64,000 bases of DNA from an uncultured Actinomycetes bacterium (GTDB lineage Bacteria > Actinomycetota > UBA4738 > HRBIN12). Below, piece after piece: positions 3,629 to 56,226 of this stretch (positions are counted from its first letter, which is position 1; every line of letters starts with the position of its first letter). The stretch is from assembly GCA_963704725.1 (NCBI GenBank), contig OY969934.1, positions 1,120,001 through 1,184,000 on the forward strand, given 5' to 3'. Below the pieces are notes generated by a model. The model ran no database searches. It had not been told where the DNA came from and saw only the letters and a program-made list of their open reading frames with translations. The position numbers were made by a program, and so were the translations under genes.

Positions 3629-4569
3629 GACGCTCCTTCCACCTCGCCTGTTCGATCCTCGTCGCCGCCGGGCCGACGCCGCTCGGGCTCGGCGAAGCTC
3701 CCCGTGGCGGCCACGGCGCGCATGATCTCGGTGACCTCCTCGAGCGTGTATCGCGACGTCGGGAAGTCGGCGGCGACCTTGCCACGATCGAGCACCACGA
3801 TCCGATCGGCCACGGAGTAGACGTGGAAGATGTTGTGGTCGATGAAGATGGCCGACTTGCCCGCCGTCTTGATGCCCTTGACGAAGTGCAGGAGCTTGTC
3901 GGTCTCCTTCAGCGAGAGCCCCATCGTCGGCTCGTCGAGGATGATGATGTCGGCCTCGAAGTGCAGGGCCCGGACGATCGCCAGACCCTGACGTTCGCCG
4001 CCGGACAACCCGGTGACGTGGGTGTCGGGCGTCAGCACGGCCGACGTGAACCCCATCGACTCGCCCATCAGCTCGGCCGTGATCCGACGCATCCTGCGCA
4101 CGTCGAGGAAGCCCAGCCCGCGGCTGATGGGCCGACCCATGAAGATGTTGCGCCACAGCGAGAGCTGCTCGGCCAGGGCCCGCTCCTGGTACACGGTCTC
4201 GACGCCCAGGCCCCGGGCCCGTTCGACCGTGAGCCCCCGGACCTCCTGCCCGCCGAACAGGATCTGCCCGCTGTCCGGCTGGTGCACACCCGTGACGATC
4301 TTGATCACGGTGGACTTGCCGGCCCCGTTGTCCCCGACGACCCCGAGCACCTCGCCGGCGGACAGCGCGAAGCTCACGTCCTTGAGGACCCGGACGCCGC
4401 CGAACGACTTGTGGATGTGGCGGAGCTCGACGGCCACCCGTCCATCCGCGCTGCCCGTCACCTGTGCCTCACCGGGCGGCAGTGTCGCACGCGCCGTGGT
4501 GAGCCGAGGCCGGCGAGCGCTCAGCTCGCCGGCCTCAGAACCGCTCACCTCGGCGTCACCGCCCTCCAT
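3625..4569 (-). CDS. sugar ABC transporter ATP-binding protein (single NBD)
   Basis: Walker A GDNGAGKS, LSGGERQ, IILDEPT, H-loop; ATG at 4569 overlaps the binding-protein stop (TGATG). Confidence 0.9.
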   Translation of the reverse strand: MEGGDAEVSGSEAGELSARRPRLTTARATLPPGEAQVTGSADGRVAVELRHIHKSFGGVRVLKDVSFALSAGEVLGVVGDNGAGKSTVIKIVTGVHQPDSGQILFGGQEVRGLTVERARGLGVETVYQERALAEQLSLWRNIFMGRPISRGLGFLDVRRMRRITAELMGESMGFTSAVLTPDTHVTGLSGGERQGLAIVRALHFEADIIILDEPTMGLSLKETDKLLHFVKGIKTAGKSAIFIDHNIFHVYSVADRIVVLDRGKVAADFPTSRYTLEEVTEIMRAVAATGSFAEPERRRPGGDEDRTGEVEGAS

Positions 4570-5624
4570 CAGCGGATCTGCTGCTCCACCAGGGGGGCGA
4601 TCTGATCGATGTTCGAGGCGTCGACGAAGCCGCCGCCCGTGTTCACGAACAGGCCGCTGAACCCGTAGTTGTGCGTCAGGCACAGCTGCTCGACCGCCAG
4701 GAACCCCTGGAGGTACTGCTGCTGGTCGATCACCAGGTCGACGAACCCGTCCTGCACGCCCTTCACGGTCGCCGGCGAGAGGTCGAACCCCGCCGCGTAC
4801 AGGTCGTCGGGCCCCAGGTTCGCCGACTCCATGTAGGTCGGGATCGTCGAGGTCAGGTTGCCGTGGTCGATGAAGATGGCCTTGGTGTCCGGGTTGGCGG
4901 ACATGTAGCCGGTGAAGGTCGAGACCCCCGCCGCCGGGTCGGCGTTCGTGGCGTCGTCGATCTCCTGGTACTGGACGTCCATGCCGGCCTCATCGAGGCC
5001 GTCGATGATGCCCTGCGTCCGCTCCCCGCGGCCGGGCTGTGCCACCAGACCCCACACGAAGACCTTGTCGCCGGACTGCAGCCCGCCCCGATTGATGGCC
5101 TCCTGTGCAAGGGCGAACCCGGCGTCGTGCAGCACCGCGCCGACGTAGCCGGTGCCGTCGGCGGCGTACTTCGCCTCCGCCGTCGGCAGCTCGGTGTTCA
5201 TGACCGTCACCAGGATCCCCTGGCTCCTGGCGTCGTCGATCAGCGGGTCGAAGGCGTCGTCACCGGGGTGCCCCATGATGGCGATGCCGTCCGGGCTCGT
5301 CGCCATGGCCTCCGAGAACTGCTGGGTCATCTTCTGGGGGTCCCAGTCGGACCACGTGTAGGTCACGTTCGGGCCGAAGGCCTCCTGGGCCGCCTTCGCC
5401 CCGTTGTAGACGACGGTCTCGAAGCCGCCGCCCTCCGTGCCGCCCGGGAAGAAGACGATGTTCATGTCCTTGCAGAACTGCCCCGCGCTCGATGCGGCGT
5501 TGTCGGACGAGTTGGACCCGCCACCGTCGTCGCTGGTGCATGCCGCGAGCGCGAGCGCGAACGCCGCCAGCAGCGCGAGGATCCGCCAGGACCCCCGTGC
5601 GTGGCGCGGCCGGGCTCTACTCAT
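4569..5624 (-). CDS. sugar ABC substrate-binding lipoprotein
   Basis: lipobox LAAC, Peripla_BP-type sequence (PDGIAI, AGFDL, IDQQQYLQGF); GGAGG RBS. Confidence 0.88.
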   Translation of the reverse strand: MSRARPRHARGSWRILALLAAFALALAACTSDDGGGSNSSDNAASSAGQFCKDMNIVFFPGGTEGGGFETVVYNGAKAAQEAFGPNVTYTWSDWDPQKMTQQFSEAMATSPDGIAIMGHPGDDAFDPLIDDARSQGILVTVMNTELPTAEAKYAADGTGYVGAVLHDAGFALAQEAINRGGLQSGDKVFVWGLVAQPGRGERTQGIIDGLDEAGMDVQYQEIDDATNADPAAGVSTFTGYMSANPDTKAIFIDHGNLTSTIPTYMESANLGPDDLYAAGFDLSPATVKGVQDGFVDLVIDQQQYLQGFLAVEQLCLTHNYGFSGLFVNTGGGFVDASNIDQIAPLVEQQIR

Positions 5625-5708
5625 CACGCGTCCTCCTTGCTCGAGAAGCTGCGGGCTCGGTGCCGTCACTGGGTTGAGCCGATACGCCTCCCCCCTTCGC
5701 GAGGACGC

Positions 5709-5747
5709 TTGCATTCGAGTGTATGCAAACGTATTCTCGCATGTCAA
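5709..5747. promoter_or_regulatory. overlapping divergent sigma-70 promoters with a possible LacI-type operator
   Basis: minus strand TTGACA(5747-5742)-N18-TACACT(5723-5718); plus strand TTGCAT(5709-5714)-N17-TATTCT(5732-5737); central TGCAAACGTATTC resembles a LacI/cre box. Confidence 0.6.
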
Positions 5748-5807
5748 GGCAGGTCGGTCCATCCTCTCGACACAGATCACGACGGGTCACGAGGAGGAGG
5801 TCAGCAG

Positions 5808-6526
5808 ATGCCCTCGCTCGAGCTTCGCGAACGGGTCGCACGGGCGAACCGGAGGCTGGTCTCCGAGGGGCTCGTCGCGCTGTCCTTCGGAAACGCGAGC
5901 GGGGTGGACCGGGCCGAGGGGGTCCTCGTCATCAAGCCGAGCGGGGTGGCGTGCGACGCGGTCGAGCCGGGCGACCTGGTGGTGGTCTCCCTCGAGAACG
6001 GAAGCGTCGTCGAGGGGTCGATGCGCCCGTCCTCCGACACCCCGACGCACCTCGTCCTGTACCGCCGCTTCGCCTCGATCGGGGGCGTGGTCCACACCCA
6101 CTCGCCCTTCGCGTCGGCGTGGGCGCAGGCCGGGAGGGCGATCCCCTGCTTCGGCACCACGCACGCCGATCATTTCCGCGGGCCGGTGCCCGTCACGCGC
6201 CCGTTGACCGCGAGTCCGAGATCGGCGGCGACTACGAGGGGGCGACGGGCGACGTGATCGTGGAGACGCTCCAGGGCCTGGGCCTCGACGCGGCGTCGAT
6301 GCCGGCCGCGCTCGTCGCGTCGCACGGTCCGTTCACGTGGGGAGCCGATCCCGTCGACGCGGCGACGAACGCCGTCGCGCTGGAGGCGGTGGCCGCCATG
6401 GCCTGGCGGACGCTGGCGCTCTCGCCGGGGGCGGAGCCGATCGGGGAGTCCCTGCTGGCACGGCACTTCGGCCGCAAGCACGGCCCGGACGCGTACTACG
6501 GCCAGCCGGGCGGCGACGGAGGCTGA
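5808..6526 (+). CDS. araD: L-ribulose-5-phosphate 4-epimerase, one frameshift near 6210
   Basis: SFGNASG, IKPSG, PSSDTPTH, HTHS, GTTHADHF in one frame; EIGGDYE, SHGPFTWG, RKHGPDAYYGQ in the next frame. Confidence 0.9.
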
Positions 6527-9599: not shown

Positions 9600-9688
9600 C
9601 CCCGGCCGAGGCCACCTCGACGGGGCCGGAGGCACGGGAGACCGGCGTTTCCCCTTAACCTTTCGCGACCCCCTCCGACGGTTCAACC

Positions 9689-10201
9689 ATGGGTCGACAT
9701 CCGCCCAGCGCAGGGCTCCGGGAGCTCATGGATCGGTTGTGGGTCGAGCGGTACCGGCTCGAGACGCTCGAGTTCAAGCTCGTCGCCGCCAAGCTCTTCC
9801 TGGCCTCCGACGTCCGGCGCTTCGTGGTCCCCGCGCTGAGCGAGGTGGAGCGCGCGGTCGAGCAGGTCCGCGCGGCCGAGCTCGGCCGGAGCCTGGCCGT
9901 GGCCAGGATCGCCGAGGACTGGCGCGTCCCGGCGGAGCGCGTGACGCTGGGCTACCTCGTGGACCACGCGCCCGAGCCGGCGGCGGAGATCTTCGAGGAG
10001 CACGGCGAGGCGTTCCTGGCTCTCACCACCGCGATCGAGGTTCTCGCCCTCGAGAACCGGCTGATGGCGCAGGACGCGCTCGATCACCTCCGGGAGACCA
10101 TCGACGATCTGGTGGGCGCCGACGTCCCTGCGGTGTGCGGGGCCTCCGGGCTCCGAGCCGACGATCCCCCGCGGCCCCGCAGCCTGGGCGGGATCGCCTG
10201 A
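9689..10201 (+). CDS. flgN: FlgN-like flagellar export chaperone (actinobacterial type)
   Basis: LW.ER..LE.L.FKL....L.LAS...R+....EVE......R..EL.R..A pattern, TL..L...APEP...IF.EH, EN..L; helical. Confidence 0.7.
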   Translation: MGRHPPSAGLRELMDRLWVERYRLETLEFKLVAAKLFLASDVRRFVVPALSEVERAVEQVRAAELGRSLAVARIAEDWRVPAERVTLGYLVDHAPEPAAEIFEEHGEAFLALTTAIEVLALENRLMAQDALDHLRETIDDLVGADVPAVCGASGLRADDPPRPRSLGGIA

Positions 10202-10395
10202 TGCCGGACCTCGTCTCCCTCGAGGATCCGCGCCCGGATCCGCATCCGGCGCGCCTCCGTCTCGAGGCCGATGCCGACGACGCGGACCCGGTCGGCTCCG
10301 CGATGGAGCTGCGCCTCCAAGAGGTCGCGTATCGAGCGACGGTGGCGGCGATGAGCGACGTGTTGCAGCCGTCGCTCGCGGATTTCCTCCGCTAG
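10201..10395 (+). CDS. 64-aa peptide resembling only the C-terminal helix of FlgL (flagellin_C-like)
   Basis: DADPVGSAMELRLQEVAYRATVAAMSDVLQPSLADFLR* matches the FlgL terminal motif (..QPSL.DFLR); ATG overlaps the flgN stop (TGATG). Confidence 0.7.
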   Translation: MPDLVSLEDPRPDPHPARLRLEADADDADPVGSAMELRLQEVAYRATVAAMSDVLQPSLADFLR

Positions 10396-10635
10396 TCACG
10401 AAGTGCGGGATTCCCCGCCGCGGCGCGCATTCGGCTTTCCCGACGGGCCCATCGGGATCCCGGCAACGCTCGGGACCTTTGGGGCGCAAGGCATCCCCGC
10501 ATCGGCCGACGTGGTCGACCGCAGGGGGTGCACGCCCAATCGCCGCACATCGCGGCGCTCGGCGACGCGCTCGGTGTCGCGGGGGGAGCGCCTCCCATCC
10601 CGCGTGCACATCGAGATTCGGCTCCCGTGAGCTAT

Positions 10636-10663
10636 GCAGCGAGGTGCCTCCGCTCGCCGATGA
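10636..10663 (+). promoter_or_regulatory. putative sigma-28 promoter upstream of the sigma-28 gene
   Basis: GCAG-N16-GCCGATGA, 45 nt before the ATG. Confidence 0.45.
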
Positions 10664-10708
10664 ACTGGGAGCACGACAACCCGACAACACCCGAGCAGGG
10701 GCGCGATC

Positions 10709-11602
10709 ATGGGACAGGGCTCAGCGAACGGAACGGCCACCGCCACCACCGACGATCGGCGCGAGCAGGACGCGCTCATCCTCGAGCACCTCGAGCTCGT
10801 GCAGCACGTCGTGAACCAGGTGTCGATGCGGTACCCCCGACACATCGATCGGCAGGAGCTGTGGAACGCCGGCGCGCTCGGATTGGTGCAGGCGGCCCGT
10901 CGCTACCGACCCGAGACGGGCGTCCCGTTCTTCCGCTACGCGGTCACGAGGATCCGAGGCGCGATCATCGACTCCACGCGCGACGGCGACTGGGTCGCCC
11001 GCGGCGTCCGCCGGGGGGTCCGCGAGATGCGCGACGTCGAGGATCGGTTCGAGGAGTCGCGCGGCGAGCGCCCGACGGACGGGGAGCTCGCGCCGGCGCT
11101 CAACATCACGATCGACGAGCTCCGGACCCGCCGGGCCGCGGCCGCCGCCTCGAGCCTGCTCCACCTGGAGCACCGCATCGACGACGAGGCCAGCCTGGGC
11201 GACTCGGTCGCCGAGGAGCACCACGACGCCCTGCCGGAGCCCGCGCTCGAGGAGCGCGAGATGCTCGGCACGGTGCGGACCGCGATCCGGTACCTGCCCC
11301 CGATCCAGCGGGCGGTCATCACGCGGTACTACCTCCAGGGCGAGATGCTCCAGGACATCGCGGCCACGATGGGCGTCAGCGAGGCCCGCGTCTCCCAGAT
11401 CGTCTCGGAGGCGGTCAACGCGCTTCGCTCGTACCTCGGGACGCAGTTCGAGGGTGTTCCCCGGGTCGCTCCGAACGCCCCCGGCAAGCGCCAGCGCGGT
11501 GCGTACGTCTCGCTCGTCAAGACCGTCAGCTGCTGGCAGGAGCGCATGCGCGCCGCCGACGCTCCCCTCCGCGAGCCCGTGCCCGCCCTGCGGGCGATGT
11601 AG
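10709..11602 (+). CDS. fliA: RNA polymerase sigma factor, FliA/WhiG (sigma-28) family
   Basis: GALGLVQAA, YAVTRIRGAIID..R..DW, PTDGELA, MGVSEARVSQI; about 55-aa C-terminal extension. Confidence 0.88.
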   Translation: MGQGSANGTATATTDDRREQDALILEHLELVQHVVNQVSMRYPRHIDRQELWNAGALGLVQAARRYRPETGVPFFRYAVTRIRGAIIDSTRDGDWVARGVRRGVREMRDVEDRFEESRGERPTDGELAPALNITIDELRTRRAAAAASSLLHLEHRIDDEASLGDSVAEEHHDALPEPALEEREMLGTVRTAIRYLPPIQRAVITRYYLQGEMLQDIAATMGVSEARVSQIVSEAVNALRSYLGTQFEGVPRVAPNAPGKRQRGAYVSLVKTVSCWQERMRAADAPLREPVPALRAM

Positions 11603-13704: not shown

Positions 13705-16700
13705 ATGCCGGTGTGCCCGGCCTGCGGTGAACGCAACCTCGCCCGCGCGCAGTTCTGCATGTCCTGCGGGCAGCCCCTCCCGTCCCCCGGGACCGATGCT
13801 GCCGCCGAGGTCCGCAAGGTGGTCACGGTCCTGTTCAGCGACATCGCCGGCTCGACCCCGATCGGGGAGCGGCTGGATCCGGAGGCCGTCCGCCGGGTGA
13901 TGGGGCGCTTCTTCGAGGAGATGAAGAGGGTTCTCGAGCGCCACGGCGGAACGGTCGAGAAGTTCATCGGCGACGCCATCGTCGCGGTGTTCGGCATCCC
14001 GGTCCTGCACGAGGACGACGCCGTTCGTGCCGTTCGGGCCGCGCTCGAGATGCAGCGGACGCTCGCCACGTTGAACCAGGAGCTCGACCCACTGGGGGTC
14101 TCCATCGTGACGCGCACCGGCATCAACACGGGCGAGGTCGTGGCGGGAGACCCCGCATGGGGGCAACCGCTCGTGGTCGGCGATGCGGTGAACGTGGCCG
14201 CCCGGCTGGAGCAGTCCGCTCCACCGGACGGGGTCGTGCTCGGCGCCGATACGTACGCGCTCGTGCGCGAGTTCGTGCGCGTCGAGCCGAAGGAGGACGT
14301 CATCCTGAAGGGGAAGCGCGCTCCGGTCACGACCTATCGGCTGCTCGGACTCAACACGGGATCGACCGCTCAGCCCGCGAGGGCGGAGCCGGCGCTCGTC
14401 GGCCGGCAGGGCGAGCTGGACCTGCTGAGGGCGGCGTTCGAGCGGACCGTGAACGAGCGTGCCTGTCATCTGCTCACGGTGGTTGGCTCGGCGGGCGTCG
14501 GGAAGTCGCGGCTCGCGAAGGAGTTCGTCTCCTCGCTCGGCGGAGCCGTCACCGCCCTCGTCGGCCGGTGCCTGCCCTACGGGGAAGGGATCACGTTCTG
14601 GCCCGTCTCCGAGATCGTGAAGCAGGCGACGGGGATCGCCGACGAGGATCGACGGGACGAGGCCCGCGCGAAGATCGACGCGCTGCTCGAGGGGTCGGTC
14701 GATGCCGCACTCGTCGCGGACCGCGTCGCCGCGGCGGCGACACTTTCGGATTCGAGCGTCGGCATCCAGGAGACGTACTGGGCGATCCGTCGGCTTTGTG
14801 AGTGGCTGGGACGGGAGCGGCCGCTCGTCCTCGTGTTCGACGACATCCAGTGGGGGGAGGATGCGTTCCTCGGCCTGCTCGAGTACCTGGTCGGCTGGGG
14901 CCGAGACGTTCCGATCCTCCTGCTGTGTCTGGCGCGTCCCGATCTGCTCGACGTGCGGCCGGCCTGGACCGCCGCGAGCGCCCACACATCAGCGATCTCG
15001 CTGGCTCCGTTGACGGACGGTGAGACCGAGCAGCTGATCGTCAACCATCTGGGGCCCGAAGGCCTCGATCCCCCGATCATCGATCGCTTCATCGAGGCGG
15101 GCGGGGGCAACCCCTTGTTCGTCGAGGAGCTCCTCCGCATGCTGGAGGACGAAGGCGTCCTCCAGCGGGATGAAGGTCGGTTGAGCGTGATCGGCGACGT
15201 CGTGGAGATCGTGGTCCCCAGAACGATCCAGGCGCTCTTGAGCGCGCGACTCGACCGCCTCGACCCTGCCGAGCGCACCGTGATCCGGAGCGCGTCGGTG
15301 GTCGGCAAGTTCTTCTGGTGGGGGGCCGTCTCGGAGCTCGTGCCGGAGAGGCTCCGGCCGGAGGTCGGCGCGCACTTGCAGACCCTCGTGCGCAAGGAGC
15401 TGATCCGCCCGGATCGGTCCGCGTTCGCCGGGTTCGCCGGCGAGGACGCGTTCCGGTTCCATCACATCCTGATCCAGGAGGCCGCCTATCAGGGAACGCC
15501 GAAGGAGACTCGGGTCGATCTCCATCGGCGCTTCGCGGCTTGGCTCGAACGGGCGGCCGGAGAGCGGAGCGCCGAGTACGAGGAGGTGCTCGGTTATCAC
15601 CTGGAGCAGGCCGCGCGCAACCGGACCGAGCTCGGACTCGAGGATGAGGAGACCCGATCGTTGGCCGTTCGGGCCGCGGAGCTCCTGGCGTCGGCCGGGC
15701 GGCGAGCATTGTCGCGAGGGGACATGCACGCCGCGGCGAACCTCTTGGATCGAGCCGCCGGCCAGCTGCCGGCCGATGACCCCATCCGGCTCCGCCTGCT
15801 TCCCGATCTCGGTGAGGCCCTGATGGAGGCGGGGGACTTCGCTCGCGCGGACGGCGTCCTGACCGAGGGAGCGACCCTCGCGGCCTCGGCCGGTGACCCT
15901 GGGCTCGAGGCGCATGCACGGATCGTCCGCCTGCTCCTGCAGGAGTCGACGGACCCGAAGCACCGAGCCGAGGAGGCCATTCGCGTCCTCGGGGAGACGA
16001 TCCCGGTCCTGGAGGAGCTGGGTGACCATCTCGGGCTGGCCCGGGCATGGCGCCTCCTCGGCGACCTGCGGTGGACGAGAGGGCGCTACGCCGATGCCGG
16101 GGATGCCCTCGAGCGCGCGGTCGATCATGCGCGGTCGGCCGGAGCGGTCTGGCAGGAGGTCGAGGTCCTCGGACAGTTCGCCGGGGCGGGTCTGTACGGC
16201 CCGACGCCGGTTCCCGAGGTCGTGGAGCGCTGCCGCAGGATCCTGGAACGCTCCGGCCGCAACCCGAGCGTCGAGGCTCGGGTGTTCCGCACGCTCGGCT
16301 CCCTGCGGGCCATGGAGGGCAAGTTCGACGAGGCGCGAGAGCTCGTTCGTCGGGCGCGGGAGATCCTCGTCGATCTCGGGCTGAAGCTGCGGGCGTCCTT
16401 CGCCTCGGAGGCCGCGGCGTTCGTGGAGATGCTCGCCGGTGACCCCGTGGCGGCGGAGGGGGAGCTCCGTGCCGGTTACGAGGCGGCCGAGAGCCTGGGG
16501 GAACGGGGGTTCCAATCGACCGTCGCGGCGCTCCTGGCCCACGCGCTCTGGGAACAGCGCCGTCTCGCCGAAGCGGAGCGCTATTCGCGGATCGCCGAGG
16601 AGATCGGAGCCGAGGACGACCTGTCGACCCAGGTGTTGTGGCGGAGCGCCCGAGCCCGGGTGCTCGCGGCCGCGGGGGACGAGGTCGCGGCCGAGGAGCT

Positions 16701-16917
16701 GGCGCGTCGTGCCGTCGCGCTGGCCGAGGACACCGACGACGTCAACATGTGCGCCGACACGCTCGTCGCGCTCGGCGAGGTGCTCCGCGCCGGCGGTCGC
16801 GACGACGACGCGGCGACCGCGCTGGGTGACGCGCTCGCGCGCTACGAGGCCAAGGGCAACGTGGTGGGAGCCGACGACGTCCGGCGCCGGCTCGACGCCC
16901 TCGACGCGTCGGTCTGA
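13705..16917 (+). CDS. zinc ribbon + class III adenylate/guanylate cyclase + AAA (STAND) ATPase + TPR protein
   Basis: CPACG..FCMSCG; FSDIAGST, KFIGDA, GDAVNVAARLE; GSAGVGKS, LVFDD, GGNPLF; helical repeat C-terminus; TAGACT -10 just upstream. Confidence 0.92.
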   Translation: MPVCPACGERNLARAQFCMSCGQPLPSPGTDAAAEVRKVVTVLFSDIAGSTPIGERLDPEAVRRVMGRFFEEMKRVLERHGGTVEKFIGDAIVAVFGIPVLHEDDAVRAVRAALEMQRTLATLNQELDPLGVSIVTRTGINTGEVVAGDPAWGQPLVVGDAVNVAARLEQSAPPDGVVLGADTYALVREFVRVEPKEDVILKGKRAPVTTYRLLGLNTGSTAQPARAEPALVGRQGELDLLRAAFERTVNERACHLLTVVGSAGVGKSRLAKEFVSSLGGAVTALVGRCLPYGEGITFWPVSEIVKQATGIADEDRRDEARAKIDALLEGSVDAALVADRVAAAATLSDSSVGIQETYWAIRRLCEWLGRERPLVLVFDDIQWGEDAFLGLLEYLVGWGRDVPILLLCLARPDLLDVRPAWTAASAHTSAISLAPLTDGETEQLIVNHLGPEGLDPPIIDRFIEAGGGNPLFVEELLRMLEDEGVLQRDEGRLSVIGDVVEIVVPRTIQALLSARLDRLDPAERTVIRSASVVGKFFWWGAVSELVPERLRPEVGAHLQTLVRKELIRPDRSAFAGFAGEDAFRFHHILIQEAAYQGTPKETRVDLHRRFAAWLERAAGERSAEYEEVLGYHLEQAARNRTELGLEDEETRSLAVRAAELLASAGRRALSRGDMHAAANLLDRAAGQLPADDPIRLRLLPDLGEALMEAGDFARADGVLTEGATLAASAGDPGLEAHARIVRLLLQESTDPKHRAEEAIRVLGETIPVLEELGDHLGLARAWRLLGDLRWTRGRYADAGDALERAVDHARSAGAVWQEVEVLGQFAGAGLYGPTPVPEVVERCRRILERSGRNPSVEARVFRTLGSLRAMEGKFDEARELVRRAREILVDLGLKLRASFASEAAAFVEMLAGDPVAAEGELRAGYEAAESLGERGFQSTVAALLAHALWEQRRLAEAERYSRIAEEIGAEDDLSTQVLWRSARARVLAAAGDEVAAEELARRAVALAEDTDDVNMCADTLVALGEVLRAGGRDDDAATALGDALARYEAKGNVVGADDVRRRLDALDASV

Positions 16918-26551: not shown

Positions 26552-27100
26552 CTAACCCGCCGGGCCGGCGAACGTCGGCGGGTCCCCCAACACGTCGTCG
26601 AGCGACGGGTTGGCCAGGTGCCGCTCGGACAGGATCGGCGAGGCCGACGGCCACGGCAGGCCGAGCGCGGGGTCGTCCCAGGCCAGGCCGAACTCGTCGT
26701 CGCCCGTGAACTCGCCGTCGACGAGGTACAACAACAGGAGCTCCGTCTCGGCGAAGAAGCCGTGGGCCACCCCGGGCGGGATGGCCAGCCCCACGCGCCG
26801 CTCGTCCGCGTCGATGCGGATCGAGGCGGTCTCGAGCCGGGTGGGCGAGCCCTCGCGCAGGTCTACGAGCCGGACGTGCCCGATCCCCGTCAGCACGCAC
26901 CAGTAGTCGGCCTGGCGCCGGTGCCGGTGCAGGCCCCGCAGGACCCCGGCGACGGACCGGGACAGGTTGGCCTGGACGGCCTCGCGGCCCCCGGCCACCC
27001 CCGACCGCCGGTACAGCTCGGTCAGCGAGCCCCGGGCGTCAGTGTGCGAGGACAGGTCGAACCGGCGCACGCCGGCGATCCTGAGCTCGTCTTCGCCCAC
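26552..27100 (-). CDS. rmlC: dTDP-4-dehydrorhamnose 3,5-epimerase family, copy 1
   Basis: DARG...E.YR, QANLSRS, VLRGLH, VDLR..SPT, IPPGVAHGF, WDDP....W. Confidence 0.85.
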   Translation of the reverse strand: MGEDELRIAGVRRFDLSSHTDARGSLTELYRRSGVAGGREAVQANLSRSVAGVLRGLHRHRRQADYWCVLTGIGHVRLVDLREGSPTRLETASIRIDADERRVGLAIPPGVAHGFFAETELLLLYLVDGEFTGDDEFGLAWDDPALGLPWPSASPILSERHLANPSLDDVLGDPPTFAGPAG

Positions 27101-27173
27101 GACGCCGCATCCTACGTGGGCGGGGACCAACGACGCTGGGGCAGCGACCGGCTACGAATGCGCCTACCTGGAG

Positions 27174-27192
27174 GTCTACTTGTTGGTAGACT
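27174..27192. promoter_or_regulatory. palindromic operator overlapping the -10 of the MazEF-like operon
   Basis: GTCTAC-N6-GTAGAC overlapping TAGACT just before the GTG start. Confidence 0.55.
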
Positions 27193-27198
27193 CCGAAC

Positions 27199-27438
27199 GT
27201 GAGCACGACGATCCGGGTCAGCGAGCACACCCGGGACCGCCTGGCCCGCTTGTCTCGGGCCACCGGGAAGCCCATGACCGAGCTCCTGGACGAAGCGGCC
27301 GACGCCCTCGAGCGGCAGCTCTTCTTCGACCAGCTCGAGGCGCGGTTCGCGGCGCTGCGCGAGGACCGGGACACGTGGGCCGAGATCGAGGCCGAGCGAG
27401 CGATCGAGGACCGATCCCTCGGCGACGCCTCTGCGTGA
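27199..27438 (+). CDS. RHH-type antitoxin
   Basis: STTIRVS..TRDRL..L.....M.ELLD.A; acidic tail; GTGA overlap with the toxin. Confidence 0.8.
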   Translation: MSTTIRVSEHTRDRLARLSRATGKPMTELLDEAADALERQLFFDQLEARFAALREDRDTWAEIEAERAIEDRSLGDASA

Positions 27439-27773
27439 GCCCACGTCGAGGCGAGATATGGCTCGTCGACTTCGGTGAGCCGGTCGGGAGCGAGCAAGCG
27501 GGGAGACGCCCGGCCGTGGTCGTCTCCGCCGACCGGCTGAACGAGAGCCGGGCGGGCGTGGTGATCGTGGTGCCGTGCACCACGACGTATCGAGGGCTCC
27601 CGTCGCACGTAGAGATCGACCTTTTGACATCCGGCCTGGACGAGGTGAGTTACGCGAAGTGCGAAGACGTCAAGTCGGTGTCCGATCGCTGGCTGGTTGC
27701 CCGGCTGGGTGCCGTGGACGATGAGGCGCTCTTCGGGATCGCGAGGGCCCTCCGCTTCCTGCTCGAAGCCTGA
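27435..27773 (+). CDS. mazF: PemK/MazF family toxin
   Basis: RGEIWLVDF..PVGSEQAGRRPAVVVS, VVPCTT, SYAKCEDVKSVS..RLG. Confidence 0.9.
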   Translation: MSPRRGEIWLVDFGEPVGSEQAGRRPAVVVSADRLNESRAGVVIVVPCTTTYRGLPSHVEIDLLTSGLDEVSYAKCEDVKSVSDRWLVARLGAVDDEALFGIARALRFLLEA

Positions 27774-27892
27774 GGGCCTCGTGGGCCAGGCGCACCGAAT
27801 CCTACGCGGCGGGAACCGAACGGCCGCTCTGGCGACGGGACGCGCGTCGTCCGCCCGAACCCGAGCGGCCCGCCGTCCTCGCCGCAAACGAA

Positions 27893-27920
27893 GAGAGCCG
27901 GCCCGAGGGCCGGCTCTCTC
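27893..27920. terminator. terminator hairpin between convergent genes
   Basis: GAGAGCCGGCCC-GA-GGGCCGGCTCTC. Confidence 0.65.
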
Positions 27921-27940
27921 GTTCGAACGAGTGGCGGGTG

Positions 27941-29045
27941 CTACTGAACGACCACCCGGTCCGAGCTCGAACCGCGGCACCGCCGGGTCCGCTCGAACTT
28001 GGCCTCGTACGCGGCCGTCCCGGAGCCCGGGAGCGACGTGTGGAAGCTGAACGTCGCCGTTGCGGTTGGTCGTGGCCGTTCCGATCTCCTGGTGCCCGCG
28101 CAGGATGTGGATCAGCGCGTGGCGCTTGCAGTCGTTGCGCCGGCAGCGGAGCTTGCCGTGCAGCGTGATGGCCTGGCTGGGACCTCCGGAGTCCGGAGCC
28201 CGAAGCGACAGCGACGTGTGCACCCGGTGGTGACCGCCACCGCCACCTCCACCACCGCCGCCCCCACCGCCACCGGGGCTGAACGGGGCCTGGATGATGA
28301 TGGACTCGCCGTCCGTGATGTTCGCGGTGTCGAACGAGACCTGCAGCAGCCGGCCGGTGCCCGGCGCGCCCGCGGAGGCTCCCTCGGTGATCCCCACCGT
28401 GGCCGAGGCGCCGAAGTCGTTCCCGGGGTTGACGGACTGGACGTCGAGGTAGCGGAACTCGATCTGCCCGGTCTCGAACAGCGCCACCTGGAACGTGTAG
28501 GGGTCGGCCGCGTCGCACACGGCGAAGGGGCTGACCTCGTTCCACTGGACGATGAACTGCGACCCGCCGACCGAGGGGACGACCTGCGTGTACACGGCGT
28601 CGTCCGTGCTGCAGCTCGTGACCCAGTCGTCCCACATGGGTGCGATCGTCGGCTCGGCCGGCGGCGACGTCGTGAGGTCGTCGTTGGTGAAGTCGGCGTT
28701 CCCGGCCCCGAACGTGAGTCCGCCGTTGCTGTTCACGAACACGTCCGTATAGACGGTGGGCGCGAGGGCGTTCACCCCGTAGAACGGGAAGCCACCGAAC
28801 AGGACCCCGAACTCCGGAGGGAACACGACGTCGACGGCGACGTCGTCGACGTTGTCCAGCCCCGGGACCAGGGTGCCGGTGCCGCTGATGTCCTGGAACC
28901 CCGACCCGCCGAGCGTGTTGGCGGTGTAGCCGAACGTGTCCGGTCCGAACACGTCGGCCGACGCCGGTCCGGCGAACGGTACGAGCAGGGCGAGCGCGGC
29001 GAGGGCCACCAGACCCACTTTCGCGCTCCGGGCCAATCGTCTCAT
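27941..29045 (-). CDS. secreted nidogen/NIDO-like domain protein with poly-Gly linker and basic C-terminal domain; frameshift near 28053
   Basis: signal peptide; FPFYG, VNSNG.LTF, IAPMWDD, FIVQW, TFQVALF..G.I.F.Y; the shifted frame gives TFSFHT...YEAK...CRGSSSDRVVVQ* ending just before the terminator. Confidence 0.75.
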
Positions 29046-29293
29046 CTCGTTCTCCCTCCGATTCTGTGCGCGTTCCTCGCGCCGACCCGCAGCGAACTCC
29101 CGGAGGACGCCGCGGCGGCGCGACTGCCCGGCGTGACTCTAGGTGCCAGGTGGTTGCGGGTCAACGCCATGCGATCCGGATCGCTCGCGACCCGGAGCTT
29201 CCCTACGTCAGCCTCCCGACCCGGGGCGTGGACACACCCCACATGCGTCCCCTACCCCCTTAGCAACGTCGGGGCGCGGCCGAGGTTGCCCCC

Positions 29294-29830
29294 TCAGCGG
29301 AACGGGGGCGCCTGCTCCAGGGCCTCGGCGAGCGAGGGGTTCGAGCGGTCCCGCTCGGACAGGATCGGGGTGGGGGAGGGCCAGGTGAGGCCGAGGGCGG
29401 GGTCGTCCCAGGCCACGCCGTGCTCGTCGTCCCCCGTGAAGTAGACGTCGACCATGTACAGGAGCAGGACCTCGGTCTCGGCGAAGAAGCCGTGGGCCAC
29501 GCCGGGCGGGATCGACAGCCCGTAGCGCCGCGCGCCGGCGTCGATCCGACGCTGGAACGTGCCCGAACGGCTCGGCGAGCCCGGGCGCAGGTCCACGAGG
29601 GCGACGTGGGCCACCCCGGACAGCACGCACCAGTAGTCGGCCTGGCGAGCGTGCCAGTGCAGGCCCCGGAGCACGCCGGGGTGGGACCAGGAGAGGTTGG
29701 CCTGGAGGACCTCCCGGCCGGCGGGGAGCCAGGACCGGCGGTAGGCCTCGCTCAGCGAGCCCCGCTCGTCCGCGTGCGGCTCGAGGGGCAACAGGTGCGC
29801 TCCGGCGATGTCGAGGTCGTCCGCGGCCAT
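29294..29830 (-). CDS. rmlC: dTDP-4-dehydrorhamnose 3,5-epimerase family, copy 2
   Basis: same motifs as copy 1 and visibly high similarity to it. Confidence 0.85.
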   Translation of the reverse strand: MAADDLDIAGAHLLPLEPHADERGSLSEAYRRSWLPAGREVLQANLSWSHPGVLRGLHWHARQADYWCVLSGVAHVALVDLRPGSPSRSGTFQRRIDAGARRYGLSIPPGVAHGFFAETEVLLLYMVDVYFTGDDEHGVAWDDPALGLTWPSPTPILSERDRSNPSLAEALEQAPPFR

Positions 29831-29938
29831 CGGCGGGCCATCCTACGTGGGGGAGGGCCGTTCGAGCCTGGGTCGGCCTCCGGGCCCATGCTAGAGTCGA
29901 GTGCCGCGTCGCGCCGGCGGGCCGTTCCGGCCGGGCAC

Positions 29939-29964
29939 GCAACCCCCGCTCGGCTTCCGGCGTT
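29939..29964 (+). promoter_or_regulatory. ECF-type promoter, likely autoregulatory
   Basis: GCAAC-N17-CGTT directly upstream of the ECF sigma gene. Confidence 0.6.
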
Positions 29965-29981
29965 TCGTTAGAGGGACAACT

Positions 29982-31587
29982 ATGGTCACCAGGATCACGG
30001 ACCTTCGGACGGAAGGGGACTACCGGTCCCTGGACGACCGCATGCTCGTGCTGGACTTCCAGGCCGGGCAGCCCGAGGCGTTCGTCGAGATCCACCGCCG
30101 GTACGCGCAGCTCGCCAAGCACGTCTGCCTGCGGTTCCTGCCCAACCGGGCCGATGCCGACGAGGCCTTCCAGGAGACGATGATCCGCGTCTACCAGGGC
30201 CTGCACCGCTTCAACGGGCAGTACGCCCTCCAGCCGTGGATCGCCCGGATCGCCACCAACGTGTCGCTCGACCAGATCCGGACCCGGGCCCGCCGGCCCC
30301 AGCTGGACGACGGGATGCTCGAGGACCACGAGCACCAGGATCCCTCCGACGGCCCGGACGAGGTCATCGAGCGCCTCATCCAGCGGGACCTCGTGCTCTC
30401 GGTGCTCTCGGGCCTGCCGTCCTCGCACCGGACCGCGCTCGTGCTCCGCGAGCTCGAGGGGCGCTCCCACAAGGAGATCGCGGTCGCCCTCGACATCACG
30501 CCGGCGCAGGCCAAGGCCCTGATCCACCGGGCCAAGATGAGCTTCCGCCGGAGCTGGCTGATCGCCGTGACGGAGAAGGGCGGACTGGGCGCGATCGCCG
30601 CGTTCCCGCTGGTCTGGATGCTGCGGGCCCTCGACGGGACCCGGAAGGTGGTCGAGAAGGTCGGGGGGCACGCCACGCAGGTGGTCCAGGTGGCCACGCC
30701 GGAGATCGTGACCTCGACCGCGAGCTCGCCGGCCACGGTGAGCGCGGCGACGAACATCACCGAGAAGGTCGTGGCGGCGGGCATGACCCTGCTCGTGGCC
30801 GGCGGGGTCACCGTGGGCGCGGCCACGATCGTCAAGCACCGGGCCGACCGGGACTCGGGCGACCGGGCCGTGCCGGCCGTGGTGGCGGCGCCCTCGGCCT
30901 CGCCCGCCGCGCCCTCGGCCTCGCCCTCCCCGCCGGGGATCCGCGAGCCCAACTCCCAGGAGGTTCAGCACCCGAGACGCCACCCGACGGGCGAGCACGA
31001 GCCCGTGGCCGTGCCCCCGGTGGAGACCTCGCCCACCCCGGACCCCTCGCCGAGCGGCTCGCCCTCGACGGACCCGAGCGAGAGCCCCTCGCCCGACCCG
31101 AGCCCCGTGCCGCCCGCGCGCGCCGGCCTGGAGCTACGCCTTCACGGCCTCCACGGAGTCCGTGGAGACGTGCGCGTGCGACGCCACCACCCGGTCGACG
31201 GGCCTGTTCGTGGACCGCCTGCCCGACGGGATCACGTTCTCCCAGCAGGTCAGCGGGGCCGCCCTGGACTCCGCCGGGGACCCCACCTGGCCCTTCTACC
31301 TGGTCCAGCAGGGCACGCTGGCGCCCGGAGGGTCCCTGTCGTACCACTTCGGGCTCGACTCGGGGGCCGGGCACTTCCTGTACCAGGGGGTCGCCGCCCT
31401 CGGCGAGACCGTGGCCAACGAGGACGGCTCGACCACGTACCACTTCGAGGGGACCTTCGACCTGCTCAGCCCCAGCGCGCCCGCGGCCGGCCTCCCCTAC
31501 CGGGGGTACGTCAGCGCCACGGTCGGCGTCTGGTCGGACGGGACGATCTACACCGGGTCGTTCTCGCTGACCGAGGCCGCGAGCTGA
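29982..31587 (+). CDS. ECF sigma factor with fused TM helix, Pro/Ser linker and extracytoplasmic beta domain; frameshift near 31115
   Basis: sigma2 (DADEAFQET, PWIARIATN), sigma4 (LRELEGRSHKEIA..LIHRA), hydrophobic VVAAGMTLLVAGGVTVGAATIV, PSPS linker, continuing AWSYAFTAST... in the shifted frame. Confidence 0.8.
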
Positions 31588-31834
31588 CATCCCCGAGCAA
31601 CCTTCCCCCCTCCGGATCGTTCTCTGAGTGGGGACCGGCGTGGTCCGGTCTGTTGCGTGAGCACGAAAGGGGGGGACGGATGGCCCCGGCGGCGGACGGG
31701 CCGGGGCCCGGGGAGCGGGCGGAGTGGTTGACCGGCAGCGAACGGCCATCTAGCATCCGACCGACCTCCCGCAGGGGCGTGACCCCCTGCGCAGCAACGC
31801 TTTGTTGGAGCGGAGGAGAGAAAGGAGTCTGTGT

Positions 31835-33726
31835 ATGAGCTTTCTCCGTAGAGGAGAAACTCGGCCAGGACTGGCCAGGACGGCAGCGGTAACGGTCTAT
31901 CTCGCTGGCGTCGTTCCAGGCCCTGGCGATCGTCGGAGCCCAGGTGGCTCAGGCCGTGGGGACGTGCACCTACAACCCCGCGACCCAGGCGATCAACATC
32001 ACGCTGGCCACGCCCAGCGACGAGGGCGTCGTCGCGGTGGAGACGGCGGCGGACGACCTCGACGCCGAGTCGGCGCCGGGGGCCATCCTGTTCATCCCGA
32101 CGGGACGTTCCCGTACGACTTCGACCCGGACGCTGAACAGCGCCCAGTGCGGGAGCGCCACGAACACGAACACCACGTCGATCGTGGTGCTCGGCTCGCC
32201 GAACGGTGACGAGTTCTTCGCCATCGACAACCTCGACGGCGCCGAGTTCAACACGGCCATCACGTGGGCCGTCGACATGGGTGGCAACACCGTCGGTGGG
32301 ACGGACGAGTTCGAGATCGACGCCGCCGACCAGACCTCTGGCGGCGACAACATCGTCCTGACCAGCAGCACGTTCACCCTGAACGGCGGCGGTGGGCCGC
32401 TGCTCGGCGTCGAGACCATCCAGGTCTTCGGCGGCGACGGCGACGACGTGGTCGACGGCTCGGCCGTCGGCGCCGGCACGACCCTGTTCCTCGAGGGCGA
32501 CGCCGGAGACGACTGGCTCGCGCCCGGCCTCGCGGCACCGCAGACGGTGGCCGCGACGCCGATCGGCGACGAGGTCTTCGGCGGCGCCGGGACCGACACG
32601 CTCAGCTACGGGACGCGGACCGACAGCACGGTCATCGACAACCGTCCGGGCCTCGCCGGCCACGACGCGAACGGTGACTGCGACGTGCTGGACATCGGCG
32701 ACGAGGCCGACGTCCTGGACGACGTGTTCGAGATCCTGCAGACCGGCTCGGGCAACGACTGCCTGATCGGCGACGGCGGCGGGGTCGACGAGACGTTCAT
32801 CCCCGGCGACGGTGACGACGACATCACCGGCGACGCTGCCGACGACGACGTCATCGACTGGTCGAGCTCCTCGGCCGCGATGTCGATCGACCCGGCCAAC
32901 GGCACGGCCACCGGACAGGGCACCGACACCTACACCGACGTGTTCAACTTCGTCGGCTCGGCGTTCGACGACGTCCTGCTCTGGGACGGGACGACCGACG
33001 GGTTCGTCGGCGGCGACGGGGTCGACACGGTCGACGCCACGGCGGCGGTGACCGGCCAGGTCATCAACCTGGAGACGCTGGACAACCTGGGCGGCCTCGA
33101 GGTCGACACGCTCGAGAACGCGCTCGGTGGATCGGGCAACGACACGCTGACCGGCAACGACCTGCGGAACAACCTCGTGGGCAACGACGGCGACGACACG
33201 CTGAACGGTGCAGCCGGCAACGACTCGCTCGAAGGTGGGCTCGGCAACGACACCTTCTTCGGCGGCGTCGGGGCCGACCGGGTCAGCTTCGCCGCATCGG
33301 CGAACGGCGTGACGGCCGACCTCAGTCTCGGATTCGCCAGCGGCGAGGGCGATGACGCCTTCGGCCTGGACGTCGAGATCCTGGTCGGGTCCGACCACAA
33401 CGACACGTTCACCGGCGGCGGCGGGGCCACCACCCGGAACTTCCTGTTCCTGGGTGGCAAGGGCAACGACTCGCTGACGGGTTCGGGCAGCAACGACACG
33501 CTGCGCGGCGGTGGCGGCAACGACATCACCCGCGGCGCCAGTGGTGACGACACGATGTTCGGCGGCAAGGGCAACGACCGGATGTTCGGCGGTGCCGGCA
33601 CCGACATCGGCAAGGGCGGCCCTGGTGACGACGTCTGCAAGGGCGTCGAGATCGCCAAGAGCTGCGGAAGCCAGAGGCAACCCGGGTCGTACGGGCCTGG
33701 CTGCGCACGTCGCTCGCCTCGTCTAG
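31835..33726 (+). CDS. secreted RTX/hemolysin-type Ca-binding repeat protein 1, frameshifted
   Basis: many GGxGxDxL nonapeptides; AAAGGAG RBS; shifts near 31915, about 32100-32130 and 33670. Confidence 0.8.
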
Positions 33727-33751
33727 CACCACACAGCATCACGCACCGAAC

Positions 33752-33785
33752 GGGACCGGCCCCCGAAAGGGGGCCGGTTCTGTTT
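33752..33785 (+). terminator. intrinsic terminator
   Basis: ACCGGCCCCC-GAAA-GGGGGCCGGT followed by TCTGTTT. Confidence 0.75.
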
Positions 33786-33889
33786 GTGCGGAATGGGCGG
33801 CCCCGGACCGATCGCAGTGGGATCCAGTCGCAGGCAGCCGAACTACTGTAGACGCATGAGACGTCCCGATCGGTTCCCCGCAATCGGCC

Positions 33890-33918: not shown

Positions 33919-33971
33919 GACCTGAACCCGGATGGGCCGATCCGGGACGCCTTCTCAAACGGGAGGTTCGC

Positions 33972-39554: not shown

Positions 39555-39788
39555 ATGGCGAGGAAGAACCTGACCGTCCAGCTCGATGAGGACGTGATCC
39601 GTCGCGCCAAGGTGGTCGCCGCCAAGCGGGGCACGTCCGTCAGCGGTTTGGTGGCTCGAGACCTGGAGGAGCTGGTCGCGAACGACGCTCGCTACGAGGA
39701 GTCCTGGCGGCGTGCTCGCGACCTCATGACCGGGTCGATCCCCAGAGGCGGGAGGACCTGGCGCCGCGACGAGATCCACGAACGGTAG
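39555..39788 (+). CDS. RHH antitoxin (VapB-like)
   Basis: KNLTVQLDEDVIRRAKVVAA.RGTSVS.LV; W.RDEIHER tail. Confidence 0.82.
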   Translation: MARKNLTVQLDEDVIRRAKVVAAKRGTSVSGLVARDLEELVANDARYEESWRRARDLMTGSIPRGGRTWRRDEIHER

Positions 39789-39793
39789 CGGCG

Positions 39794-40219
39794 GTGTCCC
39801 GTCGGGGCCCCACGTTCGTCGACACGAACGTGCTCGTCTACGCCCACGATCGCTCCGAGACGCAGAAGCAACCCGTCGCCCAGGGCGTTCTCGAACGGTT
39901 GTGGGCGGGGCGAGACGGGGTTCTCAGCACGCAGGTCCTTCAGGAGTTCTACGTGGTGGCCACCCGGAAGTTCGATCCTCGGATGACGCCGGCCGCCGCC
40001 CGCCGAATCGTGGCCCTGTACGGGGAATGGCCGACCGTCGAGATCGACGTCGCCCTGATCCTCGAAGCTTCCCGGCTCGAGGAGCGGCATACGCTTTCGT
40101 TCTGGGACGCCCTGATCGTGGAGGCTGCCCGCCGATCGGGGGCCGGGCGGCTCCTCACCGAGGATCTCCAGGGGGGACGCACGCTCGCCGGGGTCAGGAT
40201 CGAGAACCCCTTCGCTTGA
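39794..40219 (+). CDS. vapC: PIN domain toxin (VapC)
   Basis: FVDTNVLVYA, STQVLQEF, SFWDALI, LLTEDL. Confidence 0.9.
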   Translation: MSRRGPTFVDTNVLVYAHDRSETQKQPVAQGVLERLWAGRDGVLSTQVLQEFYVVATRKFDPRMTPAAARRIVALYGEWPTVEIDVALILEASRLEERHTLSFWDALIVEAARRSGAGRLLTEDLQGGRTLAGVRIENPFA

Positions 40220-40259
40220 TCGATCGCGTGCGCGGGCTAGGGGAGGCGAAGCGCGGGCC

Positions 40260-40646: not shown

Positions 40647-40648
40647 GC

Positions 40649-40879: not shown

Positions 40880-40901
40880 GACCTCCAGGATACACGCCTT
40901 C

Positions 40902-40918
40902 TGCATGATCGCCATGCA
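40902..40918. promoter_or_regulatory. palindromic operator of the FitA-VapC operon
   Basis: TGCATG-N5-CATGCA. Confidence 0.55.
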
Positions 40919-40934
40919 ATCTGCATGCGCGCCG

Positions 40935-56188: not shown

Positions 56189-56203
56189 CCACCACCCGCA
56201 CCA

Positions 56204-56226
56204 GAGCGGCCTTTCGTCGGCCGCTC
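56204..56226 (+). terminator. hairpin after flp (terminator or mRNA stabiliser)
   Basis: GAGCGGCC-N7-GGCCGCTC. Confidence 0.5.

Follow-up and report, generated by a model that had tools for sequence, protein, structure and literature searches.

We analyzed a 64,000-nt stretch of contig OY969934.1 from an uncultured Actinomycetes bacterium (the whole stretch is hereafter called the window), in which three consecutive genes of flagellar type are found: an flgN-like chaperone gene, a 64-codon open reading frame (ORF) that carries the very end of flgL (hereafter the stub) and a gene for a sigma-28 factor of the FliA/WhiG family. A regulatory switch is not proven for this trio, which is probably a leftover operon whose chaperone-peptide pair has been kept. 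More precisely, we favor the view that a late flagellar operon was left over and that selection still keeps the FlgN-stub pair, a reading to which we give an even chance of being correct. We preferred a selected pair over a neutral relic because the stub is an intact, coupled ORF of coding type, because FlgN has kept its groove and the stub fits it in a structural model, because relatives present a second, fused architecture with its own pattern of conservation, and because the tyrosine that serves docking to the export gate has been selectively lost. The locus comprises the following elements:

9655 to 9681, forward strand: proposed sigma-28-like promoter, TTAA-N15-TCCGACGG, a chance-level match whose function is unsupported
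9689 to 10201, forward strand: flgN-like gene, 170 amino acids, stop codon included in the coordinates, encoding an all-helical chaperone
10201 to 10395, forward strand: 64-codon ORF ("mini-FlgL"), whose first base is the A of the flgN stop codon (TGATG)
10267 to 10389, forward strand: FlgL-similar stretch inside the stub, located by tblastn with FlgL proteins
10396 to 10708, no strand: non-coding spacer of 313 bp, carrying GCCGATGA at 10656-10663
10709 to 11602, forward strand: intact FliA/WhiG-family sigma-28 gene, 297 amino acids

The stop codon of flgN (TGA, 10199-10201) shares its A with the ATG of the 64-codon ORF, and the trio is flanked by a ribulose-phosphate 3-epimerase gene and an ATP-dependent DNA ligase gene. 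Coordinates and ORFs were verified, and they agree with a first-pass annotation of this DNA that had described an flgN-like gene coupled through TGATG to a 64-amino-acid ORF and followed by an intact sigma gene. The window is high-GC DNA (68-76%) and all three ORFs match the coding pattern of the genome: the GC contents of the first, second and third codon positions (GC1, GC2 and GC3) are 0.80, 0.46 and 0.93 for the FlgN-like ORF, 0.83, 0.45 and 0.86 for the short ORF and 0.74, 0.48 and 0.94 for the sigma ORF. The spacer presented no coding periodicity. Relative to the GC content of the spacer (0.709), the short ORF differed significantly both at GC2 (29/64, p = 2e-5) and at GC3 (55/64, p = 0.008), and among the other stop-to-stop ORFs of 60-100 codons in the window (194 in total), none combined GC2 ≤ 0.46 with GC3 ≥ 0.85 as the short ORF alone does. 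Coding-type composition was found in both halves of the stub. We also considered a programmed frameshift that would join FlgN to the stub and rejected it, since the slippery heptamer is absent before the stop codon.

The 64-amino-acid product of the stub matched no family in a Pfam scan. Its residues 24-63 nevertheless correspond to the last 40 positions (348-387 of 387) of the NCBIfam profile of FlgL, TIGR02550 (E = 5.4e-4), and an exhaustive phmmer search over 1.84 billion representatives yielded 11 non-self matches (E = 3.5e-5 to 5.8e-4). These matches pair their own C-termini with residues 23/25-64 of the stub, with one exception that starts at residue 7. When P0006, which like P0007 is a full-length FlgL-type protein with Flagellin_N and Flagellin_C, was searched against the window with tblastn, the similarity was located at 10267-10389 (E = 4.7e-10, 61% identity over 41 amino acids); FlgL proteins presented no significant similarity to the window outside this interval. 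The stub keeps all eight columns that are invariant in the 12-sequence alignment, and its C-terminal helix ends in QPSLxDFLR. Homology is confined to the C-terminal ~42 residues: the N-terminal flagellin-type domain of FlgL and its export signal are absent, and about the first 22-30 residues of the stub are acidic and proline-rich. Judged by this homology, the stub is a fragment of FlgL and not a member of the family. The initial description of the ORF as almost entirely FlgL motif was about two-thirds true, as it applies to the C-terminal ~42 residues and not to the N-terminal 22. The accompanying claim that the chaperone-binding segment of FlgL alone was kept is backed by TIGR02550, phmmer and tblastn, which all identify the surviving part as the C-terminal helix.

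Other stubs of the FlgL C-terminus exist among public proteins, and these may be gene-call fragments or further decayed loci. P0011 (90 amino acids) joins a FlgK-like N-terminus to the FlgL C-terminus, P0010 (153 amino acids) has an unrelated NAD-binding-like N-terminus ahead of it, and P0013 is a 71-amino-acid FlgL C-terminal form.

The FlgN-like protein of the window scored below the cut-off of the Pfam family FlgN (PF05130; E = 1.3e-3, 19.6 bits for a cut-off of 30.5 bits). A profile search recovered a 14-member family (157-231 amino acids) in which 11 members have a precomputed FlgN domain and none is named, and PF05130 was matched by all 12 scanned family members (alignment A5) at E ≤ 0.01, with a best value of 1.8e-20. 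The window protein is 56-72% identical to its PF05130-matching relatives. In addition, a word-indexed search returned three relatives, and all 30 matches of a feature search in the ESM Atlas were FlgN clusters (score 0.92). On sequence grounds, the window protein is counted as a member of the FlgN family by way of its relatives. The profile searches that had been proposed as a check of the initial annotation gave a divided outcome: FlgN was recovered via relatives with its own PF05130 score below the cut-off, and the stub was negative for Pfam and positive for TIGR02550.

The AlphaFold2 (AF2) model of the protein (predicted local distance difference test, pLDDT, 84.8; predicted template modeling score, pTM, 0.72) presents helices at residues 8-40, 43-78 and 98-143 and a disordered tail at 145-170 (pLDDT < 50), which is the architecture of FlgN proteins, small and all-helical with three long helices and a flexible C-terminal tail. 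No PDB entry reached E ≤ 0.001 in a fold search with this model, in which a MIC60 helical bundle ranked first (E = 0.24); such a comparison is uninformative for a helical bundle, and a single-sequence PDB search returned nothing relevant. One public form of the protein (P0001, 157 amino acids) begins at Met14 (9728), 13 codons after 9689. Nine relatives conserve the 13 residues ahead of Met14 (N-terminus MxRHPxxEGLxEL), which indicates that the start of flgN is probably at 9689. In the tree, the window protein, P0002-P0004 and two fusion proteins (P0018 and P0015) form one clade with a support of 0.99 and an unresolved interior. We examined the possibility that the FlgN tail was derived from FlgL and rejected it, since this tail is a conserved feature of every stand-alone member and can be aligned to Salmonella FlgN. 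Scans of genome contigs with the FlgN alignment and with the sigma factor found no relative.

In the two fusion proteins, P0018 (231 amino acids) and P0015 (203 amino acids, N-terminally short), FlgN is joined in frame with a trimmed FlgL. Their FlgN portion ends ~12 residues before the usual terminus of the family and is followed by the middle of FlgL, as is seen when IVNVTQRGGEVAG and LTMLETL of P0018 are set beside VVAVTQPGDEVFG and FTLLETI of P0009, a FlgL fragment. The fusions then omit ~44 residues between two similar I-x-D-x-D motifs and terminate in the C-terminal helix. The identity between P0018 and P0015 is 77% overall: 79% in the FlgN segment (87/110), 63% in the linker formed by the junction and the FlgL middle (31/49, plus one in-frame indel of one amino acid) and 87.5% in the C-terminal helix (35/40). 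Both the helix (p = 0.014) and FlgN (p = 0.049) are more conserved than the linker and do not differ from each other (p = 0.34), which suggests that the two ends have been held more tightly since the fusion. This pattern served as a protein-level stand-in, based on two sequences, for the ratio of nonsynonymous to synonymous substitution rates (dN/dS).

The window FlgN keeps its natural tail and stop (ending in PRPRSLGGIA, where the family ends in PPRRLDRVV), which are absent in the fusions, and this indicates that the anatomy of the window is not simply fusion-derived. The fusions retain FlgL sequence that is missing from the window. The two anatomies arose either by independent deletions or from one shared initial deletion to which separate second events were added. 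An AF2 model of fused P0018 (pLDDT 69.3, pTM 0.38) was too uncertain to assess docking of the helix in cis. An ESM Atlas search with P0018 provided leads only (best score 0.77): one 51-member cluster (score 0.76) has a 64-amino-acid representative, is commonest in Actinomycetota and presents no Pfam family, and three clusters of 68-82 amino acids have Flagellin_C in 25-33% of their members. We found no report of an orphan FlgN or of a FlgN-FlgL fusion in non-flagellated bacteria in the small part of the matching literature that was covered, which is weak evidence.

We then compared the family profile to PDB sequences and obtained an ungapped alignment of 73 residues to Salmonella FlgN (5b3d_A), in which the family motif TYGATG is aligned on LYGADG. 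The tyrosine of this motif is residue 122 of the Salmonella protein, as counted from the printed alignment, and Tyr-122 is described as critical for binding FlhA-C, the export gate (PMC8527033). All 11 stand-alone family members possess this docking tyrosine, and it is replaced in all three stub-carrying proteins (Cys150 in the window, Ser in P0018 and Cys in P0015), an association between tyrosine loss and FlgL-stub carriage that is significant (Fisher p = 0.0027). Since the two fusions are sisters, the losses represent at least two events and not three. The invariant Asn123 of the family is retained in the window and aligns with Salmonella Asn-95, a residue implicated in FlgK binding. Stub-accompanied FlgNs have dropped the export-serving residue and retained the groove. 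As far as the alignment goes, this loss argues against continued work as an export chaperone and is compatible with a changed role or with decay.

One controlled complex prediction was conducted for FlgN and the stub, using family alignments for both chains and three controls. The pair scored 0.81 (0.81, 0.80 and 0.81 across runs) and the best of the three controls scored 0.07. A score this high was attained by 116 of the 157 solved complexes and by 2 of the 215 mismatched pairs in the benchmark, counts that hold only roughly because our own alignments were supplied. The runs showed a contact agreement of at least 97% and a partner pLDDT of at least 64. In the modeled interface, residues 30-64 of the stub face the helices of FlgN (residues 27-142), and the invariant N123 and near-invariant R124 of FlgN are among the closest contacts. 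The model, a structure prediction of the kind suggested along with the initial annotation, supports a stub helix seated in the FlgN groove, so that binding of the FlgK/FlgL C-terminal region, a trait of FlgN proteins, is seen here in silico only. To our knowledge no FlgN-FlgK/L complex has been solved, but structures of related chaperone-substrate pairs exist, and some of the score may stem from likeness.

The third gene encodes a sigma factor with Sigma-70 regions 2, 3 and 4, all above Pfam cut-offs, which matches the subfamily profile FliA_WhiG TIGR02479 (E = 1.3e-51; 175.5 bits for a cut-off of 189.6). This combination places it in the FliA/WhiG family, and its top PDB matches were WhiG of S. 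venezuelae and FliA of E. coli; the view of this gene as an intact FliA/WhiG sigma was therefore upheld by regions 2-4 and by TIGR02479. We read its contact residues from an alignment to the RsiG-bound WhiG of S. venezuelae (6pfv_A). None of the three contacts to cyclic di-GMP (c-di-GMP) is kept (Lys57, Gly61 and Arg62 correspond to Gln32, Asn36 and Gln37) and only the threonine is kept among five RsiG contacts (Thr235, Leu236, Tyr239, Glu240 and Leu242 correspond to Thr, Arg, Leu, Gln and Glu). According to a preprint, those residues divide RsiG-controlled WhiG2 from flagellum-associated WhiG1 (bioRxiv 10.64898/2026.01.14.699351). Their absence suggests that the window sigma is WhiG1-like, on contact residues only. 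Control of this sigma by RsiG and c-di-GMP was considered and rejected, as the contact residues are absent. The same preprint describes WhiG1 as having no known anti-sigma and nearly all actinobacterial flagellar clusters as lacking FlgM (bioRxiv 10.64898/2026.01.14.699351). Finally, the window sigma has a C-terminal tail of ~50 residues (247-297; 11447-11599, forward strand) past the part aligned to solved FliA/WhiG chains, with coding-type composition (GC3 0.90) and no family match.

The first-pass annotation had also placed sigma-28-like promoters ahead of flgN and of the sigma gene, and this did not hold up, the match counts being no better than expected by chance. A relaxed pattern fitted to the flgN site had one match in the window, that very site, for 2.1 expected; GCCGAT[AG]A had nine matches for 5.3 expected; the strict WhiG2-type pattern had none (1.0 expected) and the WhiG1-type pattern four (3.9 expected), none of them near the trio. 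Both proposed sites fail the published WhiG search rule, in which an exact -35 is required (bioRxiv 10.64898/2026.01.14.699351). The -10-like element of flgN ends 7 nt ahead of the flgN ATG, and a transcript from this site would consequently be leaderless. The octamer GCCGATGA at 10656-10663 lies 45 nt ahead of the sigma ATG and was, among the nine, the sole one judged clearly intergenic from gene coordinates. Leaderless-type spacing and an intergenic octamer are at most suggestive. The spacer presented no Rfam family, no Pfam match in its ORFs and no match to a sigma-70 promoter or terminator, and its RNA fold was not significant (z = -1.35).

Flagellar, chemotaxis, FlgM, FliW and CsrA families were all absent from the 184 ORFs of the window (50 likely genes and 134 gap-covering stop-to-stop ORFs), in agreement with the earlier statement that flgK, flagellin, flgM and export genes are missing from these 64 kb. 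FlgN is typically encoded beside flgK-flgL in a flagellar cluster; here flgK is absent and only the 3' end of flgL is found. The flgM gene that would lie near the sigma under FlgM-type control was not found within the 64-kb window either.

The window as a whole yielded 0 Rfam families and 0 tRNA genes, and several other loci deserve mention. A Tad/Flp pilus locus (55982-61677, forward strand) encodes a Flp pilin, RcpC/CpaB, a ParA-like ATPase, a CpaF-type ATPase and two TadB/C-type proteins. In other actinobacteria WhiG is predicted to target pilus genes, but here no strict sigma-28 motif was found ahead of the Flp pilin gene. A 1070-amino-acid protein encoded ~2 kb downstream of the sigma gene (13705-16914, forward strand) combines an adenylate/guanylate cyclase domain with an AAA ATPase domain and tetratricopeptide (TPR) repeats. 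An AraD-like class II aldolase (5830-6410, forward strand) is split between two frames, with profile positions 2-130 read in the frame of ORF 4503-6254 and positions 136-182 in that of ORF 5678-6523; the break near 6210-6236 reflects a frameshifted pseudogene or a sequence error. Two paralogous minus-strand genes for dTDP-4-dehydrorhamnose 3,5-epimerase (26555-27130 and 29297-29830; region 26555-29830) enclose poorly resolved coding sequence with a MazF/PemK toxin domain (~27446-27770, forward strand) and a nucleotidyltransferase domain. A sigma factor of the extracytoplasmic function (ECF) type with regions 2 and 4 is found at 30095-30540 (forward strand) within ORF 29895-31835. RTX calcium-binding repeat proteins are encoded at 31944-33848, 33921-34868, 35097-35843 and 38257-39486, the last of which also presents PD40 beta-propeller repeats, and two PIN-domain genes with a FitA-like antitoxin lie at ~39590-40934 (39794-40915).

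We propose that the trio is the remnant of a late (sigma-28-class) operon of the flgN-flgK-flgL kind in a lineage that would have abandoned flagella, a loss that is described as having occurred many times in Actinomycetota (PMC10746217). One or more deletions took away flgK and ~85% of flgL and spared flgN. Also left behind are the last ~42 flgL codons, within a 64-codon ORF coupled to flgN, and a WhiG1-like sigma-28 gene 313 bp downstream. FlgN has retained its groove, would grip the amphipathic C-terminal helix of the stub and has lost its FlhA-docking tyrosine; with the groove kept and this tyrosine lost, a standing, export-independent chaperone-peptide complex would form. The most likely role of the stub would be to occupy the FlgN groove and thereby stabilize or silence FlgN, and the sigma may have been retained for a non-flagellar regulon. 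The data show the homologies of the three products, the anatomy of the deletion, the tyrosine loss and the conservation pattern of the fused relatives; binding is seen in a model only, and we infer selection in this genome, the genome-wide absence of flagella and any regulatory role.

Several observations weigh against a pair kept by selection. The branch of the window FlgN (0.31-0.35, as compared with 0.06 for its sister P0004) points to fast evolution, and the protein presents seven changes at sites where the other nine close members do not vary (eight such changes are found in P0019 and 0-2 in the remaining members); fast evolution of this kind suits relaxed constraint and a new role equally well. 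Plain decay would also be expected to cost FlgN its docking tyrosine, and the overall match to Salmonella FlgN is a weak one (E = 0.2, and 0.33 for the stretch). The N-terminus of the stub shows no significant similarity to FlgL, to the FlgK N-terminus or to the fusion linker (p = 0.2-0.9), and the near-length search for the stub returned one candidate, the stub itself, so that the split form is seen in this one genome. The stub helix resembles P0015 (24/39 identical) no more than it resembles working FlgLs (61-62%), and its conservation could therefore predate a recent deletion. The selection argument is built on two fused proteins and on protein identities with p values of 0.01-0.05, the complex model shows likeness to a chaperone-substrate pair and not binding in the cell, and the survey of flagellar genes spans 64 kb of a 3.45-Mb contig.

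Alternatively, the locus might be a neutral relic of a fairly recent deletion of flgK and most of flgL, in which flgN, the stub and perhaps the sigma gene are merely undegraded and the stub ORF and its coupling to flgN are accidents of the deletion endpoint. We regard this as possible though rather doubtful. It would account for the restriction of the split form to one genome, for a stub N-terminus devoid of homology and for the long FlgN branch with its seven unique changes at conserved sites, including the docking tyrosine; the split AraD-like gene in the same window and the odd public stubs P0011, P0010 and P0013, whose existence suggests that FlgL 3' ends are often left behind, point the same way. 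It is harder to reconcile with a FlgN reading frame that has remained open over 170 codons, with a GC3 of 0.93, despite a branch of ~0.3 substitutions per site, with fused relatives that conserve the helix and FlgN above the linker, with invariant groove residues that are kept and located in the modeled interface, and with two differing anatomies that each keep FlgN together with the same helix. Retention of the helix only, the complex model, the fused pairing and the tyrosine loss likewise argue for the initial opinion that the locus does not reflect random decay, and they speak for a pair that has ceased to serve export. That opinion had come with a specific mechanism, in which FlgN and the stub form a partner-switching or titration device acting on the neighboring sigma-28. 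In one such scheme, the sigma or its production would be restrained by free FlgN, the amount of which would be set by proteolysis of the stub rather than by its export. The three genes are indeed adjacent, FlgN is described as regulating flgM translation in Salmonella (PMC4054197), the anti-sigma of WhiG1-type sigmas is given as unknown and FlgM as lacking in nearly all actinobacterial flagellar clusters in the preprint cited above (bioRxiv 10.64898/2026.01.14.699351), and FlgM was not found in the 184 ORFs of the window. The disordered, acidic N-terminus of the stub could be a degradation handle, and a precedent may be the FliA-FlgM pair of Legionella oakridgensis, where FlgM is seemingly degraded (PMC5655016). 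We nonetheless consider such a device unlikely, as nothing in the results ties FlgN or the stub to the sigma, the sigma-28 promoter matches do not exceed chance and the helix is tethered to FlgN in the fused relatives, for which a permanent cap fits better than a switch. Its broader version, in which FlgN and a captive FlgL helix would be the missing post-translational controller of WhiG1-type sigma-28 factors in Actinomycetota, appears quite unlikely. In that equally unlikely view, free FlgN would restrain the sigma or its synthesis until occupancy of the groove releases it, and in this lineage the controller would have outlived the flagellum, divided into a pair here and joined into a single chain in relatives.

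It is very unlikely that the organism is still flagellated, with a full cluster elsewhere, a window FlgN that works as an export chaperone and a stub that is rearrangement debris. The window represents 64 kb of a 3.45-Mb contig, and 38% of WhiG1 genes are reported not to lie within five genes of a flagellar cluster (bioRxiv 10.64898/2026.01.14.699351). The FlhA-docking tyrosine kept in 11 of 11 stand-alone relatives is nevertheless a cysteine here, flgK and flgL normally occur as single copies adjacent to flgN, B. subtilis being an example (PMC4054197), and none of the 184 window ORFs is flagellar or chemotactic. Even less credible is an assembly or sequencing artefact at the flgN/stub junction: the split AraD-like gene shows that this record contains frame breaks, but FlgN has the usual stop and tail of its family, the missing ~2.5 kb (flgK and most of flgL) are beyond an error of frameshift scale, and the contig reaches 3.45 Mb.

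The leftover operon with its kept chaperone-peptide pair resembles FlgN and FlgK/FlgL of Salmonella and Bacillus in that the chaperone belongs to the same family, a hook-junction protein supplies its C-terminal helix as the partner and the modeled groove contact includes the Asn aligned with Salmonella Asn-95. It also resembles the flgM-flgN-flgK-flgL arrangement described in B. subtilis, where flgN and its substrate are in one operon (PMC4054197). In contrast to these systems, the substrate in the window has been cut to ~42 homologous residues without export signal or structural domains, flgK is missing, the docking tyrosine is replaced, no export apparatus is found within 64 kb, and relatives of the window protein carry chaperone and helix as one polypeptide. 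The pairs FliT-FliD and FliW-flagellin-CsrA are further flagellar binders and substrates that double as regulators, and control of flgM translation by FlgN reportedly goes back to work by Aldridge in 2003 and by Karlinsey in 2000. FlgN is described as acting on flgM translation and FliS on FlgM secretion (PMC4054197, PMC8527033); a subunit binder can have a second, regulatory target when it is subunit-free. In those cases the subunit is exported, whereas here export is presumably gone and the stub would be non-exportable.

Flagellar-clade sigmas with a small partner have been described in other non-flagellated organisms, namely FliA-FlgM in L. oakridgensis and WhiG-RsiG in Streptomyces (PMC5655016, PMC8325347); the pair of L. 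oakridgensis is presented as a working one in which FlgM is seemingly degraded and not exported (PMC5655016). The partners in these organisms are true anti-sigmas, FlgM and RsiG, whereas the window contains no FlgM match and its sigma lacks the RsiG and c-di-GMP contacts. The window sigma can be likened to the WhiG1 clade, by contact residues and not by phylogeny, as WhiG2-defining contacts are absent and the gene lies beside flagellar-derived genes. WhiG1 is reported in 81% of the genomes that possess a flagellar cluster (bioRxiv 10.64898/2026.01.14.699351), whereas the window has stubs of a cluster only.

Remnants that persist after the loss of flagella reveal which parts are useful beyond motility. 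The locus suggests that a flagellar export chaperone may survive together with no more of its substrate than the piece that it grips, freed from the export gate and either split from this piece or fused to it. If the pair were to act on sigma-28, this would bear on a question raised as open in 2026, namely how WhiG1-type sigmas are controlled without FlgM. If the locus is a relic only, it would constitute a clean example of the decay of a flagellar operon and of the order in which residues are lost. In addition, given its predicted binding, the stub would represent a natural minimal FlgN-binding peptide for structural work.

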